A stretch of DNA of 64,000 nt from Thermodesulfovibrionia bacterium (GCA_020053105.1 JAGVNU010000076.1:72005-136004), one strand, 5' to 3'; shown: positions 58,670-64,000, counted from the first letter of the stretch. Program-made: numbers and translations. The notes: generated from the letters alone by a model not told the origin.

Positions 58670-60315
58670 TTAATACTTTCCCCTCTTTTAGGAAGCGTAA
58701 AATAGATTGTGTTCTTTCCCTCCAGCGTTTTGCTCAAGACACCTATCGCCCCGCCGTGGGCTTCGACTATGGCTTTACATATGGCAAGTCCAAGGCCGGT
58801 ACCGTGCCTTTTACCTATTGTATAAAACTTGTCAAAGATTTTCTCCCGGAGTTCATCGGGTATTCCGGGGCCTTCATCCTGAACAGAAACCGTCAGCTTC
58901 TCTTCCGTCTCTGTAACAGCTATCTGAATTTCCGAATCAGCCGGTCCATATGTGAGCGCGTTAGAGACCAGGTTGATCAAAACCTGTCTGGTCCTGTCTT
59001 CATCGGCGTCAACAAAAGTCCCGGGATTTGCCATAATCTTAAAGGTAATATTTTTTTCACCGGAAGTTGACTGAAAGCTTATTGCCACGTCTTTAATAAG
59101 AGACAAAAGATCTATCTGGCTGAAGTGAAGATCAAACATCCCGGATTCAATGCGCTCCAGGTCAATAGTATCATTAACAAGACGGATGAGCCTGTCGGCG
59201 TTATTTTTGATGACATCCAGAAATTCTGTAACTTCCCCTGTGTCCCTGCCGTCCCTGGATAATTTGACAGATATATAATCCATAGCCCCTTTGATTGAGG
59301 TCATCGGGGTCCTTAATTCGTGGGACATCTTCGCGATAAAGTCGGATTTCTTTTCGTTCAGCTCCATGAGTTTCATGTTCGCCTCTTCAAGCCCCCTCGT
59401 GGCCTTCTGCACCTTGTTTTCAAGGTCCTTGTGGTATTCAGCGAGCGCCTGAGACATTTCAACAAATGAGTTACTCAGGTCCTCCAGTTCATCGCCGGTG
59501 CTTACCGTTGAAGTTTGAGACTTCCGGCCTTTTGAAACATCTCCAATGGAGGTCTTCAACTCATTTACCGGACGGACCACAAGCTCCTTCATCATGATAA
59601 AAAGCACGATCATCAGCACTCCGATAGTCACGCTGCTTGAGATAAGCAGGTCTCTCCTGCCGGAGTTTATCATTACCAATGCAGAATCCATCGGTACAGT
59701 TACGCTTATGGCGCCCCTGACATCGCCAGTCCTGTAACCCTGATGGGAGTGGCATTTGAGGCATGTCTCTTCGACATAGAGCGGTGCGATATAACGATAG
59801 AAATAAGATGAATTGACCTTTTCCACCTTGGCAGATTCCTTTGTCCCTTTGGTCTCAAATTCATTGAGGGCAGTCCTTTCAAACTCATCCGGGGCATTCT
59901 CCGGATTTATCAGCTTGAGGCTTGTAATATGAAACCAGTACAGGCCTTTTTCCCTGGCATACCTTGAAAGTTCCTTTGTTACCATGGCAGGGCTTTGCCT
60001 GACATATTTTTTCCCGTGAGAGTCCACGATTTCCGGTTCCGCGAGATAGGGACTTGGCTCTTTCCACGGCACCCTTTCCACGAACACTCCCCCGTGATCG
60101 GATATCCATTTTCTCGTCAGGACAACCTGCCTGAAAAGTGCCCGCGCCTGCTGGTCGAGCTGCTCTATAACGAGTTTCTTATGATTTATGTTTATGAAAT
60201 AAATCGATATCCCGGTCGTAATGGCCAGTACAACGGCTACGCCGATTACAAATTTGAGACTGAGGCTGATCTTTAGCGCCCTGAACTGTCTTAATAAGTT
60301 CTTTAGAGTGTGCAT
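58666..60315 (-). CDS. Sensor histidine kinase with periplasmic/extracytoplasmic DUF3365-type domain carrying a CxxCH heme-c motif
   Basis: TM, then a domain ending YRYIAPLYVEETCLKCHSHQGYRTGDVRGAISV, then TM, HAMP, H-box (SHELRTPMTSI) and HATPase (N, G1 and G2 boxes). 4-nt overlap with the downstream OmpR-type regulator. Confidence 0.85.
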   Translation of the reverse strand: MHTLKNLLRQFRALKISLSLKFVIGVAVVLAITTGISIYFININHKKLVIEQLDQQARALFRQVVLTRKWISDHGGVFVERVPWKEPSPYLAEPEIVDSHGKKYVRQSPAMVTKELSRYAREKGLYWFHITSLKLINPENAPDEFERTALNEFETKGTKESAKVEKVNSSYFYRYIAPLYVEETCLKCHSHQGYRTGDVRGAISVTVPMDSALVMINSGRRDLLISSSVTIGVLMIVLFIMMKELVVRPVNELKTSIGDVSKGRKSQTSTVSTGDELEDLSNSFVEMSQALAEYHKDLENKVQKATRGLEEANMKLMELNEKKSDFIAKMSHELRTPMTSIKGAMDYISVKLSRDGRDTGEVTEFLDVIKNNADRLIRLVNDTIDLERIESGMFDLHFSQIDLLSLIKDVAISFQSTSGEKNITFKIMANPGTFVDADEDRTRQVLINLVSNALTYGPADSEIQIAVTETEEKLTVSVQDEGPGIPDELREKIFDKFYTIGKRHGTGLGLAICKAIVEAHGGAIGVLSKTLEGKNTIYFTLPKRGESIK

Positions 60316-60433
60316 AAGGTAATTTCAGGAAATGAGCGCGTGACGTCATTCCTTTATAAGGATTGTAAAGTCTGCATAAGATCAAGTCAAATCGGGTCAC
60401 GTGATTTGGTGCAACGATAAGTTATGCGGTCTT

Positions 60434-61420
60434 CTATGGGGTTATCTCAACAATCGTGCCATTGGGCACTAACTTTTCAATTTCCTCTATTTCTTCGTCT
60501 GTGACGGCAATACAGCCTTTCGTCCAGTCAACCTCTGTATGAAAATTACCGGCCCACGAGAAACCATTCTTAATGCCGTGGATCATGATGTCTCCGCCCG
60601 GAGAAACACCAAGTTCTTTTGCCCGCTTTTTGTCTTTCTCGTTTGGATAGGAAATATGAAGAGACAGGTGATAACGGCTGTCCCTGTTTCTTGAATCGAT
60701 AATATAGGTCCCCTCCGGGGTTTTGTTATCGCCCTGCCTTTCTTTTGGACCATTCGGGTTTCCCCCCAAGGCTATGTTGTAGGTTTTGAGCGCCTTGTCC
60801 TTTGAGAGCAACGTTAATCGACGCTCTTTCTTTTCTATCAGAATCTTATCTGCCGGTCCCCTCTGGAGCGCAACAACCTCTTTTTGCAGTGTAATAATCT
60901 CATTCTCTTTACTATTGACCTCTTGTTTAAGCTCTTCAATCATTTTTTGCAGTGTAGCAATCTCATTCCCCCTGCTTTTGACCTCTTGCCGGAGAGTCTC
61001 AATCTGTGTTTGCTTCGTGCCAATCGTCTTATCTTTGAAGATGACATTATTGATCTGGAATATCATTATCTCACTATCTTTCCTGTACCCGCTCTCCGGG
61101 TAATCCTTTATGAGTTTCTGAAAACATTCCAGAGATTTCTGATAATCTTTTTGCTCATTCCCGGTATACGCATAAATAATACCCATCTCGAAAAGGACCC
61201 TGTCTCCAGCCGTGGGATATTTTTCAATTACCTGCTGATATTTACTCAGGGAGGCCTCGTAGCTTCCCTGGGTGAAAAGATCATTCGCTTCTTTGAAGGT
61301 TGACCTGGCCTGAGATCTCTCATTAAAGTGACTGCATCCGAATATTAGAATTGGCGCTATTATGATAAGGACAAAGAACAAGTTTAGATGCTCACCTATC
61401 CTGCTTTGCTTTTTACCCAT
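60434..61420 (-). CDS. L,D-transpeptidase (YkuD) lipoprotein with N-terminal TPR and coiled-coil repeat
   Basis: The start is set at the ATG at 61420, because the upstream part of the track ORF runs through a terminator hairpin. Signal peptide with lipobox-like LIFGC. Tandem coiled-coil repeat (LRQEVKSRGNEIATLQK / LKQEVNSKENEIITLQK). YkuD catalytic region IMIHG...WTKGCIAV. Confidence 0.75.
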   Translation of the reverse strand: MGKKQSRIGEHLNLFFVLIIIAPILIFGCSHFNERSQARSTFKEANDLFTQGSYEASLSKYQQVIEKYPTAGDRVLFEMGIIYAYTGNEQKDYQKSLECFQKLIKDYPESGYRKDSEIMIFQINNVIFKDKTIGTKQTQIETLRQEVKSRGNEIATLQKMIEELKQEVNSKENEIITLQKEVVALQRGPADKILIEKKERRLTLLSKDKALKTYNIALGGNPNGPKERQGDNKTPEGTYIIDSRNRDSRYHLSLHISYPNEKDKKRAKELGVSPGGDIMIHGIKNGFSWAGNFHTEVDWTKGCIAVTDEEIEEIEKLVPNGTIVEITP

Positions 61421-61450
61421 ATATCCCTTCGTGTTCGTTAATACATAAGA

Positions 61451-61500
61451 GTGTAGGGGCAATTCATGCCTGTGCCCTTCAGGGTAAATTGCCCCTACAC
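61451..61500 (-). terminator. Perfect 14-bp-stem hairpin downstream of the Lpp-like gene
   Basis: GTGTAGGGGCAATT-22 nt-AATTGCCCCTACAC, followed on the minus strand by a U-rich UCUUAUGUAUU. Confidence 0.6.
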
Positions 61501-61515
61501 TCCCACAAAATCGAC

Positions 61516-61881
61516 TTACTTCTTCATTGATTTCCGGAAAATCTCGTCAGCCTGCTTCGTCTTTTCATCTGCAATCATCGACTTTTCCTCTGCCAGTTTC
61601 TCCCTTTCCTCTGCGAGCTTCATCTTTTCTGCTGCCAGCTTCTCCCTTTCCTCTGCCATCTTGATAGCATCTTCGGCGCGGGTCACGGCAGCCTCTGCCT
61701 TTAACGCGGCCGCATCCGCTGCCGCCTTGGCAGCCTGCGCATCCTGCGCTGCCTGATCAGCTTTCGCACCAGTCAGCATTTGCTGAGACTGGACTTTCTC
61801 AAGGTCACCTGTTGTTGCGCAACCCACCAAAGCAATGGCAAGAACAATCATCATTGAAATCATCAAAAGATTCTTCTTCAT
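61516..61881 (-). CDS. Ala-rich coiled-coil lipoprotein ending in Lys (Braun-lipoprotein-like)
   Basis: Signal peptide with lipobox LVGC and a very strong SD (AGGAGGTGA). The mature approx 100 aa is Ala/Glu/Lys coiled coil with the repeat AEEREKLA(A/E)EK. The C-terminus is ...RKSMKK. Confidence 0.6.
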   Translation of the reverse strand: MKKNLLMISMMIVLAIALVGCATTGDLEKVQSQQMLTGAKADQAAQDAQAAKAAADAAALKAEAAVTRAEDAIKMAEEREKLAAEKMKLAEEREKLAEEKSMIADEKTKQADEIFRKSMKK

Positions 61882-61992
61882 CGTCTAATCACCTCCTTCT
61901 ATGAAAAATTATTGCAAGATATTTCTCCCTGCGCTTAAACCAGGAATCCTGGTATTTTTTGTGATTCTTTAAACCATCATTCTATCGTGCCT

Positions 61993-63630
61993 CTAATATC
62001 GATAGATAACGGATTTGATGCCGTATTTTTGGAGAATCAGTTTGGATTCCTCCGAAGCCTTCTTACTCGTGTCGAACCTGCCTATCAGGACAAGGTGGAG
62101 CGGCCTTTTTCCGTATTTGCGGACCGATGTCCCATATCCCTTCAGCTTCAGTTTCTCTGAAAGGGAAAGCGCGTTCTTTTCCTCGGCAAATGCCCCTATC
62201 TGGAGAGCATAGCCCCCTGGATTTCCTGAGCCGCCTGTCTTTGCAATGTCGGCGACAAGTGGTTCCTCCTTCACTGCTCCAGCGGCAGGAGGCTTTGCGG
62301 CCGCTCTTTCAATCAACATACCATCTATTTCCAAATCAATTTTCAGGCGTTTGATTGCATCTTTGGCCTCTCTGATATCATTGAAAGGACCAGCGATAAC
62401 ACGGTAGCTGTTGTTCTTTGATAACACCCTTGCCGGAATTTGCGGCCCCTGGTGGTTGATAATGGCAGCAAGTCTCACAGCTTCAATCTCGTCACTCACG
62501 TCAGCAGCCAAAACAGACCACGCATCTGTTTTCAGTTCCGGTATCTCCGGTCTGCCATATAATTCACCAGGGTGCTTGAGTTCTACGGGGCCAGCAACCC
62601 CTACTCCGCTTCCTTGCCTGATCTCGAATATGGGGACAGGAATCCCCCGGGCCTCGGCCAATACTTTCTTGACTTTGCTCCAGTCAAGCGTGCGCCCCGA
62701 TTCCTTTTCAATATTTCTCAATTTCGCATATATCTTATCAAACTCAACAGCGTCCAGGTCTTCCGGGGATGCATGGACTTCCAAGTAAACTACTCCGTTA
62801 CTTTGACCTGTGAGATATGGCTGATTGACGATGTATACAGGTGTTTTTGCCGGGGTGTTCTCATAGAGTTTTTTCACGGCTTCCGGATAGAGTCTTATGC
62901 AGCCGTTGGTCGCTCTAAGACCAATGCTTGCCGGTTTATTAGTGCCATGGATCAAATAACTCGACTTACTTAAATATAGCGCGTATTCTCCCAGGGGATT
63001 GAGGGGGCCGGGCAGAACTTTAGCTGGAAGAGGGTCCCCTTTTTTTCGATGGTCCTCAGCAATTGAGGCAGGCACATGCCAGGTCGGACGGACTACCTTG
63101 CGTTCCACATACATTTGACCTGTGGGCGAGGGTCGCTCTTCGGTACCGACACCGACCGGGTAGGTCAACACCGCCAGTGACTCACTATCTCCTTTAAATT
63201 GAAAAAGCCTCATTGCGGCCAGGTTGATCACGATGCCTTTTCTGGGAGCATCCGGCAGTATAAAACTCAGAGGCAGCATGATACGTTCTCCGGCCTTAGG
63301 CGCCCATACATCTACCCCTGGATTAGCTGCACTGACTCCATTGATTCCCAGGCTGAAGTGCCTTGCAATATCCGGCAGAGTGTCCCCCTTTTCAAGACTC
63401 ATGAAGGCCAGCCGGCCAATGACATCATCTCCTTTTGCAACTGAAAACTCATTTCGTTCGATATATTCTTCCAGATGTCTTGGAATGGGCTGGGATTCCT
63501 TTGGAACGGGCCGGGATTCCTCATGAACTCCTTTCGTTGTAGCACATCCATGGAGAGATAAGATACCGATAAAAAAAACTATAAGACGAAGCCTGTTGGA
63601 TAAGGGTGACAGCTCAATGATTCGGCACAT
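61993..63630 (-). CDS. L,D-transpeptidase with LysM, YkuD and C-terminal SPOR-like domains
   Basis: The LysM-like segment is KGDTLPDIARHFSLGINGVSAANPGV. The YkuD catalytic region is YLIHGTNKPASIGLRATNGCIRL. The C-terminal region reads YALQIGAFAEEKNALSLSEKLKLKGY... and looks like a SPOR repeat. Confidence 0.8.
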   Translation of the reverse strand: MCRIIELSPLSNRLRLIVFFIGILSLHGCATTKGVHEESRPVPKESQPIPRHLEEYIERNEFSVAKGDDVIGRLAFMSLEKGDTLPDIARHFSLGINGVSAANPGVDVWAPKAGERIMLPLSFILPDAPRKGIVINLAAMRLFQFKGDSESLAVLTYPVGVGTEERPSPTGQMYVERKVVRPTWHVPASIAEDHRKKGDPLPAKVLPGPLNPLGEYALYLSKSSYLIHGTNKPASIGLRATNGCIRLYPEAVKKLYENTPAKTPVYIVNQPYLTGQSNGVVYLEVHASPEDLDAVEFDKIYAKLRNIEKESGRTLDWSKVKKVLAEARGIPVPIFEIRQGSGVGVAGPVELKHPGELYGRPEIPELKTDAWSVLAADVSDEIEAVRLAAIINHQGPQIPARVLSKNNSYRVIAGPFNDIREAKDAIKRLKIDLEIDGMLIERAAAKPPAAGAVKEEPLVADIAKTGGSGNPGGYALQIGAFAEEKNALSLSEKLKLKGYGTSVRKYGKRPLHLVLIGRFDTSKKASEESKLILQKYGIKSVIYRY

Positions 63631-63707
63631 GGGTCAAACAAGGTCCTTTCTTTAATGAAGAAAATTTAATAAACCATTATTCATTAAAGCACTGGATCGT
63701 ATTTATA

Positions 63708-63723
63708 TGCAAAAGTAATGCCT
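63708..63723 (-). promoter_or_regulatory. Sigma-54 (-24/-12) promoter candidate
   Basis: The minus strand reads AGGCATTACTTTTGCA with exact GG-N10-GC spacing (-24 is AGGCA rather than TGGCA). It lies about 78 nt upstream of the ATG at 63630. Confidence 0.45.
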
Positions 63724-63808
63724 CAAAGTATAAAGCCGTAATAACCTCTTTAATATTAAGAATGTCCTATTCTAACAACATTATTTAATTTTTGGGAGGA
63801 ACACAGGA

Positions 63809-63852
63809 TTTGTATGGTTTCCATAACAACTTTGTATGGTTTTCCCAACAAC
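63809..63852. repeat. Tandem 22-nt direct repeat (2 copies)
   Basis: TTTGTATGGTTTCCATAACAAC and TTTGTATGGTTTTCCCAACAAC share 19 of 22 positions. Copy 1 contains the palindrome TATGG-N3-CCATA. Confidence 0.55.
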
Positions 63853-63945
63853 AATAAACTTCCCCTCCGCAAGCAGACGGGGTATTAATCCATCCTTTGT
63901 AAGACAAGTTAAAACCACCCTCTCCAACGAAATGCAGACAGACCA

Positions 63946-64000
63946 AAATTTACTTTTTCTTTACAAATATTAACATCACGTTTACAAAGAAACCTGCTAT
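63946..64000 (+). promoter_or_regulatory. 55-nt regulatory module, copy B: four phased TT(T/A)AC direct repeats (runs into window edge)
   Basis: TTTAC (63949), TTTAC (63960), TTAAC (63970) and TTTAC (63981). 49 of 55 nt are identical to the reverse complement of 57237-57291. The regulated gene would lie beyond 64000. Confidence 0.55.

Follow-up and report, generated by a model that had tools for sequence, protein, structure and literature searches.

The window analysed here is a 64,000-nt stretch of DNA from a Thermodesulfovibrionia bacterium (GCA_020053105.1 JAGVNU010000076.1:72005-136004). The feature of interest lies at positions 60434-63630 and consists of three open reading frames (ORFs), all on the minus strand, which are referred to in order as genes C, B and A. 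Together they probably form an operon for a covalent, Braun-type tether from outer membrane to peptidoglycan that carries its own attaching and detaching enzymes. A first-pass annotation of the window had placed a lipoprotein gene between two YkuD genes on the same strand, and both the coordinates and the YkuD domains (PF03734; 80.5 bits in C and 64.2 bits in A, gathering score 23.4) agree with it. From the sequences, the gene order is best read as attaching enzyme, substrate and detaching enzyme rather than as a substrate between two transpeptidases. The features are as follows.

Gene C, 61993..63630, minus strand: 545-amino-acid (aa) predicted lipoprotein with lipobox LHGC, a sub-threshold LysM-like segment, a YkuD domain, a weak Ldt_C match and two SPOR domains.
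Gene B, 61516..61881, minus strand: 121-aa Lpp/OprI-family alanine-zipper lipoprotein with lipobox LVGC, 101 aa when mature, C-terminus FRKSMKK.
Gene A, 60434..61420, minus strand: 328-aa predicted lipoprotein with lipobox IFGC, a BamD/CpoB-like TPR region, a YkuD domain of the YafK/DpaA type and, between them, a stalk of coiled-coil heptads.
Shine-Dalgarno sequence AAGGAGGTGAT of gene B, 61888..61898, minus strand: 6 nt before the ATG.
Hairpin after gene B, 61449..61502, minus strand: 13 nt past the lpp stop codon, with a 16-bp perfect stem, further pairs and a 22-nt loop.

Relatives were collected by a scan of one genome per GTDB species, which gave 80 loci, followed by a set of 46 (40 from Geobacterales) and then by 20 from three orders. 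The lipobox Cys is kept in all three proteins, being present in 121 of 123 relatives of A and in 108 of 108 relatives of C, and invariant in the alignment of B. The first-pass annotation had implied lipoprotein status for only two of the products.

Gene B begins with MKKNLLMISMMIVLAIALVGC and ends in FRKSMKK. The translated ORF contains the lipobox LVGC, followed by ATTGDLEKVQ, and an Ala-rich helix region, so that the lipobox, the Ala-rich coiled-coil-like region and the C-terminal MKK described in the first-pass annotation are all present. The same annotation regarded B as analogous to E. coli Lpp rather than clearly homologous, a view that has to be revised. B scores 65.8 bits against NCBIfam model NF040598 (Lpp/OprI family alanine-zipper lipoprotein; cut-off 43) and 29.6 bits against Pfam model PF11839 (Alanine_zipper; gathering threshold 23.1), or 30.8 bits without the signal peptide. 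A profile of the B family identified E. coli Lpp as the best solved relative, in register from the lipid Cys, and in BLASTP residues 1-58 were 28% identical to E. coli Lpp (pairwise E 3e-6). Since B lies above the NF040598 and PF11839 cut-offs and aligns in register from the lipid Cys, it is assigned on sequence grounds as a true homologue of Lpp/OprI and not an analogue. A Pfam scan found no match of B to PF04728, the enterobacterial LPP model, even at E up to 10, and B is classed by these models as OprI type and not enterobacterial type. An identity look-up of B's own sequence returned no match.

The protein may be considered in terms of an Lpp-like N-terminal half and a C-terminal half made up of heptads of the EEREKLA/EEKAKIA type. 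Homologues of B differ in length by multiples of seven residues, and these differences fall within the EEKAKIA-type repeats. Among 526 database homologues, several are named "Lpp/OprI family" or "murein lipoprotein" at NCBI. The C-terminal Lys is found in 110 of the 120 best homologues, the other 10 appearing truncated or frameshifted, and all B proteins of the 80 genome loci end in SM[KRMQ]K. B has no Asp at position +2, and the genome encodes two LolA homologues.

In E. coli, Lpp is the rod that fastens the outer membrane to the cell wall, and covalent tethering of this kind is usually presented as a gammaproteobacterial speciality. The first-pass annotation accordingly placed the gene in a lineage where Lpp is not expected, which is supported in part by a cross-phylum survey that had PF04728 as its only model and listed Lpp from four gammaproteobacterial orders alone (bioRxiv 10.1101/2021.05.31.446380). 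Against this expectation stand the names in use at NCBI and the published Geobacter Lpp of at least 99 residues (Mandela et al. 2022; PMC8824477). In a 2026 paper, the Lpp of G. sulfurreducens was taken as Braun lipoprotein and was an abundant, regulated protein with higher levels at low Na+ (PMC13442872). The neighbouring genes of Geobacter lpp are not discussed in PMC8824477 or PMC13442872.

Besides its YkuD domain, gene C encodes two SPOR stretches (79.8 bits). The first-pass annotation had described a LysM-YkuD-SPOR enzyme; the YkuD and SPOR domains are confirmed but the LysM match is below threshold (E 0.054, 13.9 bits against 20.9), and the Ldt_C match is weak (E 0.099). Alongside a catalytic His, C carries TNGCIR, a motif of the transpeptidase type (S/T)xGChR; 74 of 79 relatives have [ST]NGC.R at this site, and a further one reads TYGCLR. 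Comparison with equivalog models gave 163.4 bits for LdtE (cut-off 480), ~163 bits for PRK10190 (cut-off 517) and ~151 bits for PRK10260 (cut-off 583). By sequence, C is placed in the L,D-transpeptidase (Ldt) lineage of the ErfK/YbiS/YcfS/YnhG type, together with the Lpp-anchoring LdtA-C and the OprI-anchoring LdtPae2. Anchoring and cross-linking enzymes of this lineage are not separable by sequence (PMC10434034). C is most likely an Lpp-anchoring L,D-transpeptidase, as predicted from its lineage and motif.

The listed start of gene A, a TTG at 61462, falls within the hairpin that follows gene B. An ATG at 61420 gives a protein beginning MGKKQSR... with a lipoprotein signal MGKKQSRIGEHLNLFFVLIIIAPILIFGC and lipobox IFGC, and is the most likely start of a 328-aa product. 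In addition to YkuD, Pfam matches were obtained to TPR_6 and YfiO/BamD-like models, along with a coiled-coil region. The catalytic motif is TKGCIA, and TxGCIA occurs in all 72 complete relatives. A motif of this form, SxGChA, was proposed by Winkle et al. as a signature of the lipoprotein-tripeptide bond hydrolase YafK/DpaA, as cited in PMC10434034. The sole Ldt-type NCBIfam match of A is to the LdtF/DpaA/YafK model NF040599, with 46.5 bits against an equivalog cut-off of 365. In a profile search with the catalytic domain, the best match in the PDB was E. coli DpaA (8ikr, E 1.5e-12), followed by the L,D-carboxypeptidase Bd1075 (8.7e-6) and YkuD (5e-5).

Gene A and the E. coli dpaA product share ~41% identity, with K83, Q86, R108, Y109, M133, H135, C143 and A145 kept (DpaA numbering). 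Residues of the DpaA substrate cleft include K83, Q86, R108, Y109, K130 and Y131; K83 is essential and the Y131A variant retains 4% activity (PMC10653827). At the position of DpaA M133, where L,D-carboxypeptidases have the Trp of a D-Ala pocket (residue roles from PMC10653827), A also has Met. With its TxGCIA motif, most of the DpaA cleft residues and DpaA itself as the best solved relative, the downstream enzyme does not fit the two L,D-transpeptidases of the first-pass annotation; A is more likely an Lpp-peptidoglycan amidase, that is, a predicted release enzyme.

The order C-B-A on one strand was found in ~140 species genomes wherever the contig allows, with the exception of L093 in which C is inverted downstream. 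Gene linkage in relatives, which the first-pass annotation had put forward as a check, holds. The 80-locus set spans Nitrospirota-labelled metagenome-assembled genomes (MAGs), Geobacterales, Desulfuromonadales, Desulfobacterales, Syntrophales, Syntrophorhabdus and Deferrimicrobia, and two metagenome/MAG contigs obtained by an identity look-up also have YkuD-SPOR, Alanine_zipper and TPR(-YkuD) in this order, with other genes around them. The flanking ORFs are unrelated to one another, falling into 57 clusters among 63 upstream neighbours and 64 clusters among 67 downstream neighbours. The A and C proteins of the 80 loci, which span phyla and include Geobacterales, are roughly 57-90% identical to those of the window. 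The dedicated tethering module proposed in the first-pass annotation is supported by the conserved linkage, the Lys-ended coiled-coil lipoprotein and the YkuD enzymes, while the labels of analogue and of two transpeptidases are not supported.

The lengths of the lipoprotein and of gene A vary together. Mature B proteins have 73, 80, 87, 94, 101, 108 or 122 residues. The stalk of A was defined by alignment anchors as the stretch between the end of the TPR region (DYPxSxY) and the start of YkuD (ADKILIEKK), replacing an earlier regex-based measure that left out 27 loci. Stalk lengths fall mainly into two series with steps of seven, 63/70/77/84/91 and 65/72/79/86, with a single value of 113; the other values (73, 76, 78, 80, 88) are at most 1-2 residues off a series value. 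The insertions and deletions sit in a visibly repetitive coiled-coil segment. Over 123 unique loci, the Spearman correlation between mature B length and stalk length is 0.75. An Lpp of 73 or 80 residues is accompanied by a stalk of 63-73 in all 35 such loci, so that a short Lpp never occurs with a long stalk, and the longest Lpp proteins are paired with the longest stalks (108 with 91, 122 with 113).

Kinship among the loci was handled by pairing tips with non-overlapping paths on the tree of protein C. Thirty-two pairs had unequal Lpp lengths; the stalk followed Lpp in ~11 of them, ran counter to it in 1-2 and did not change in ~19 (sign test, p ~0.02). At least 7 pairs differ by exactly one heptad in each protein. 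An earlier binary independent-pairs test had given 4-5 same, 0 opposite and ~4 unchanged, which was not significant (p ~0.06-0.25). The sole gross outlier is L001 (6364-7279, ENA ERZ25039513, a 686-kb contig), with an Lpp of 102 and a stalk of 63. Its gene A is frameshifted within YkuD, continuing in the +1 frame after ...YKIALGG, and its Lpp is divergent and ends in SMLK; this gene A is either a pseudogene or the result of a long-read indel or assembly error.

The data are suggestive of a stalk on the DpaA-like enzyme that changes length in heptad steps with Lpp. Such co-variation fits an enzyme that shares the membrane of Lpp and must reach its C-terminus. Tentatively, A may act as a "hydrolase on a ruler", with an outer-membrane anchor beside Lpp and a stalk that would co-evolve with Lpp heptad for heptad, keeping the catalytic domain in reach of the plane in which peptidoglycan and the C-terminus of Lpp meet. 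If this is true, the distance from outer membrane to wall would be heritable, tunable and jointly encoded by two genes, and the cassette, with its writer, its rod and an eraser of matching length, would be a self-sufficient unit that travels between phyla and sets the width of the periplasm.

With the family memberships, catalytic motifs, gene order, invariant terminal Lys and length co-variation as observed, we infer biochemical steps, localisations and an oligomeric state for the cassette as follows. B would be made abundantly, placed in the outer membrane by its lipid and assembled as a trimeric coiled-coil rod of ~14 nm if fully helical (101 mature residues against 58 in E. coli). C would sit on the peptidoglycan by means of its SPOR domains and transfer a donor tetrapeptide stem, linking B's C-terminal Lys, through its side-chain amine, to meso-diaminopimelate (meso-DAP) at the L-centre carbonyl. 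A, held by its lipid anchor, TPR region and length-matched stalk, would hydrolyse the Lys(B)-meso-DAP bond and in this way tune the bound and free pools of B.

A number of observations weigh against this scheme. With 46.5 bits against a cut-off of 365, A is by this model not an equivalog of E. coli DpaA. K130 and Y131 of DpaA are replaced by G and D, respectively, a 14-residue insert lies between HG and GC ahead of the catalytic Cys, and A ends directly after the YkuD core without the tail that DpaA has at its C-terminus. The domain family of A has 6507 representatives at E <=0.001, mostly short exported proteins, and the Ala of GC-h-A is present in 139 of the best 150 of these 6507 relatives. 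Because this family is very large, the TxGCIA motif is a pointer to an Lpp amidase and not proof of one. An AlphaFold2 calculation on the catalytic domain with 37 close homologues was poor, with a mean predicted local distance difference test (pLDDT) score of 57.8. For gene B, the C-terminus is MKK and not the RK of Lpp and OprI. For gene C, the E. coli Ldt adjoining lpp, LdtE, is reported as a cross-linker (PMC10653827). The length co-variation has only p ~0.02, obtained on a FastTree topology with a midpoint root.

Much of this evidence bears on an alternative in which B is tethered but A has another role, either as a second anchoring or cross-linking Ldt or as an L,D-carboxypeptidase or glycine-trimming enzyme acting on donor stems near the tether. 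A does have the YkuD fold with catalytic His and Cys; it lacks the K130 and Y131 of DpaA and, like canonical YkuD enzymes, has a longer loop before the Cys. The next-best solved relatives are the L,D-carboxypeptidases Bd1075, Pgp2 and Csd6, and DpaA too removes a position-4 Gly (PMC10653827). However, the Arg of transpeptidases is Ala in all 72 complete relatives, and the aromatic residue in the D-Ala pocket of carboxypeptidases, Trp158 in Csd6, is Met in both A and DpaA (PMC10653827). DpaA is also ahead of the other matches by at least 6 orders of magnitude in E-value, and a stalk that tracks Lpp length suits an enzyme working at the Lpp C-terminus. This alternative is considered unlikely, and the assignment of A as a probable release enzyme is retained.

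A second alternative, judged still less likely, concerns gene C, which may make 3-3 cross-links like LdtE, leaving B to be attached by another Ldt or not covalently and making the cassette a unit of an envelope-strengthening regulon. E. coli lpp adjoins ldtE, reported as a cross-linking enzyme (PMC10653827), and the LdtE model is marginally the best for C (163.4 against 162.6 and 151.2 bits). The genome has two more YkuD genes with GChR-type motifs, one of which is beside a second Ala-rich lipoprotein ending in RK, and SPOR domains indicate septal or denuded glycan rather than a lipoprotein. On the other side, B and C overlap or abut at ATGA-type junctions in many relatives and are never apart in the ~140 genomes, the invariant terminal Lys of B would be left without explanation, and a P. 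aeruginosa Ldt of the same lineage anchors OprI (PMC10434034).

It is very improbable that B is no wall tether at all and serves instead as a coiled-coil spacer, free in the periplasm or exposed at the surface, or acts at the septum with the SPOR protein, with the Lys kept for another reason. In favour of such a role, about two-thirds of E. coli Lpp is free (PMC10653827), neither Lpp nor OprI has anything that corresponds to the C-terminal half of B (EEKAKIA heptads, SMKK), and for non-covalent tethering the genome already encodes Pal, with two proteins above cut-off, and several proteins with OmpA domains. Against it, B is a family member by curated models, is strictly linked to two enzymes of the fold that acts on the Lpp-DAP bond and has the terminal Lys in 80 of 80 loci. 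Since the genome has Pal and OmpA-domain proteins, the covalent tether predicted for the cassette would add to non-covalent tethers and not replace them.

The expression signals of the cassette differ from gene to gene. The Shine-Dalgarno (SD) sequence of gene B, AAGGAGGTGAT, pairs with the anti-SD at -15.3 kcal/mol and ranks first among the 127 ORFs of at least 80 aa in the window, the runner-up having -12.9 kcal/mol; the first-pass annotation was correct in calling it the strongest in the window. The SD sequences of genes C and A are weak (-4.6 and -4.1 kcal/mol). We infer high expression of B from the strength of its SD and from the Geobacter papers only. Taken together, a very strong SD on B, weak ones on A and C and a hairpin behind B would yield plenty of structural protein and little enzyme.

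The hairpin itself had been described as a perfect 14-bp-stem terminator. The repeat is in fact a perfect 16-bp inverted repeat (61449-61464 / 61487-61502) with a 22-nt loop and a tail UUAUGUAUUAAC that lacks a U-run, and ~-40 kcal/mol was calculated for 70 nt around it. A terminator scan did not call the post-lpp hairpin. A clean intrinsic terminator was rejected, given the 22-nt loop and the absent U-run, and the structure, placed between lpp and gene A, probably either stabilises the mRNA or terminates transcription leakily. Relatives have a very stable hairpin at the same site (median -34 kcal/mol, 77 loci). In most of them the stem is conserved in sequence as GGAAGUGGCAGGG/CCCUGCCACUUCC, and 7 of its 11 base pairs have undergone compensatory changes.

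An alignment of 58 loci revealed nucleotide-level conservation across phyla over the 100 nt past the lpp stop codon. This 3' untranslated region (UTR) consists of a variable first hairpin, then the near-invariant stem GGAAGUGGCAGGG/CCCUGCCACUUCC and then UUAUGCUUCCACCGUUC, while the window, L014 and L059 have a different long hairpin at the post-lpp position. No family in Rfam matches the conserved hairpin. The conserved 3' UTR may terminate transcription leakily, stabilise the mRNA or give rise to a 3'-UTR-derived small RNA. A small terminator-like hairpin with a AAUAAUUUUU tail was also observed at 61914-61932 on the minus strand, between the gene C stop codon and the lpp SD, where it would fall in, or just before, the lpp 5' UTR. 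It is weak, with 6 pairs, and the scanned region contains 5 such sites where chance alone would give 4.2.

Relatives in Geobacterales appear to be under a form of control that differs from that of the window. The genes GSU0181-0183 of G. sulfurreducens are uncharacterised and are transcribed as one operon under a cyclic GMP-AMP (cGAMP) riboswitch (PMC6456294). Hallberg et al. reported that they lie downstream of GEMM-Ib cGAMP riboswitches and that loss of gacA lowers the operon 16-fold (PMC6456294). GSU0181-0183 appears to be the same cassette, judging from its position, its genes and its tandem GEMM-I aptamers; the Geobacterales locus L118, which probably corresponds to it, has the C-B-A order with two tandem GEMM-I aptamers upstream. 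GEMM-I (c-di-GMP-I, RF01051) aptamers, mostly in tandem, were found in all 11 Geobacterales/Desulfuromonadales loci among 14 scanned and in 20 of 20 further Geobacterales loci, in agreement with the cGAMP control published for GSU0181-0183 (PMC6456294). They are located 50-350 nt upstream of gene C in L016-L020, L023, L024, L027-L029, L031, L033 and L100-L119, those of L020 being only sub-gathering c-di-GMP-I-GGC matches. No GEMM-I aptamer was found at E up to 1 in positions 60000-64000 of the window, nor upstream of the Nitrospirota-labelled loci L014, L021, L032, L036 and L045. Evidently, the cassette switched regulation when the host lineage changed.

The distribution of the cassette is uneven. 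A family profile was matched by 4 of the 6 further species examined in the genus to which the window belongs. Only one weak match was obtained across 18 other genera of the family, 9 of 64 genomes of the order matched, and none of 150 other sampled genomes of the phylum did. In comparison, 62 of the 121 Geobacterales in the sample were matched, as were 8 of 151 Desulfobacterales. On the tree of protein C, which has no reliable root, the window groups with two Nitrospirota-labelled MAGs beside a large Geobacterales/Desulfuromonadales clade with very short branches. At 0.47, the GC content of the module presents no contrast to the genome's 0.46. Vertical descent of the cassette inside the phylum was judged unlikely, given the 0 of 150 in the phylum and the one weak match among 18 genera of the family. 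Since the cassette is nearly confined to one genus in this lineage, horizontal transfer of the whole cassette is suggested as the simplest reading, and this Nitrospirota-type genus probably acquired it sideways.

Six YkuD genes are present in the genome, three with GChR and three with GChA motifs, and some of those outside the window are arranged in ways worth recording. A second candidate lipoprotein/Ldt pair is located at G000:C23:45782-47122 (L008 1126-2466). Its lipoprotein is an Ala-rich protein of 122 aa that ends in MKQRK and scores 25.3 bits against NF040598, under the cut-off of 43; the gene is convergent with a 323-aa LysM-YkuD-Ldt_C-type gene with motif SHGCIR, an arrangement like that of E. 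coli lpp-ldtE. At G000:C13:13394-14489 (L010/L012), two YkuD genes with opposite motif types adjoin. The first, a 381-aa frame counted between stop codons, carries TYGCVA together with a lipobox and an N-terminal region that is long and helical; the second, immediately behind it, has THGCVR in a frame of 219 aa. Judging from the motifs, these may be a further pair of hydrolase and transpeptidase. A stand-alone paralogue of the gene A domain, 183 aa long with motif TNGCIA and without TPR or stalk, lies at G000:C57:2125-2532. It typifies a very large and functionally uncharacterised family of short exported YkuD proteins with GC-h-A.

Taken alone, the window provides an annotation-level result, and the system can already be seen in Geobacter papers, where it is an uncharacterised operon. 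What is new is the near-confinement of the cassette to one genus in this lineage and the co-variation of stalk and Lpp by heptads. The presence of the cassette in half of the sampled Geobacterales, ~5% of Desulfobacterales and scattered Nitrospirota-type genera suggests a portable operon to attach and reverse the tether in anaerobic metal- and sulfur-cycling bacteria. With its cGAMP-responsive operon, G. sulfurreducens may serve as a genetically tractable test bed for the distance between outer membrane and wall and for the matching of stalk and rod lengths.

Compared to the GSU0181-0183-type operon, the window lacks the riboswitch, encodes two SPOR domains instead of one and has a sequence variant of the post-lpp hairpin. 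The Lpp of the window has 101 mature residues, in contrast to 73-94 in most Geobacterales.

In E. coli (PMC10653827; bioRxiv 10.1101/2021.02.21.432140), the closest counterpart of B is Lpp, with which B aligns from the lipid Cys while keeping an AK(A/V)DQ core; both proteins match NF040598, whereas B has no match to PF04728. The lpp gene of E. coli is likewise beside the gene of an ErfK-type Ldt, lpp and ldtE being convergent in K-12. A resembles E. coli DpaA in its ~41% identity and in most of its substrate-cleft residues, and differs from it in the absence of K130 and Y131 and in a score far under the equivalog cut-off. E. coli dpaA is unlinked to lpp and its product is soluble and single-domain with a C-terminal tail, whereas A is a predicted lipoprotein with a TPR region and a stalk.

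For the three predicted functions taken together, the precedent known from experiment is that of P. aeruginosa. There, LdtPae2 anchors OprI and the YafK-like LdtPae3 has been assigned to OprI release (PMC10434034). Like the OprI/LdtPae2/LdtPae3 set, the window encodes an OprI-type (PF11839) lipoprotein with a C-terminal Lys, together with one Ldt of the ErfK/YbiS/YcfS/YnhG lineage (SxGChR) and one YafK-like enzyme (SxGChA). Unlike OprI, B has 101 mature residues, a heptad-repeat C-terminal half and a terminal MKK in place of RK. The Ldt of the window has SPOR domains and a lipobox, and its YafK-like enzyme is a predicted lipoprotein with TPR and a coiled-coil stalk, neither of which is the case in P. 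aeruginosa. The three genes also form one invariant cassette, unlike those of P. aeruginosa. The two systems would share a logic of attachment and detachment, which for the cassette in the window is a prediction from the genes alone.

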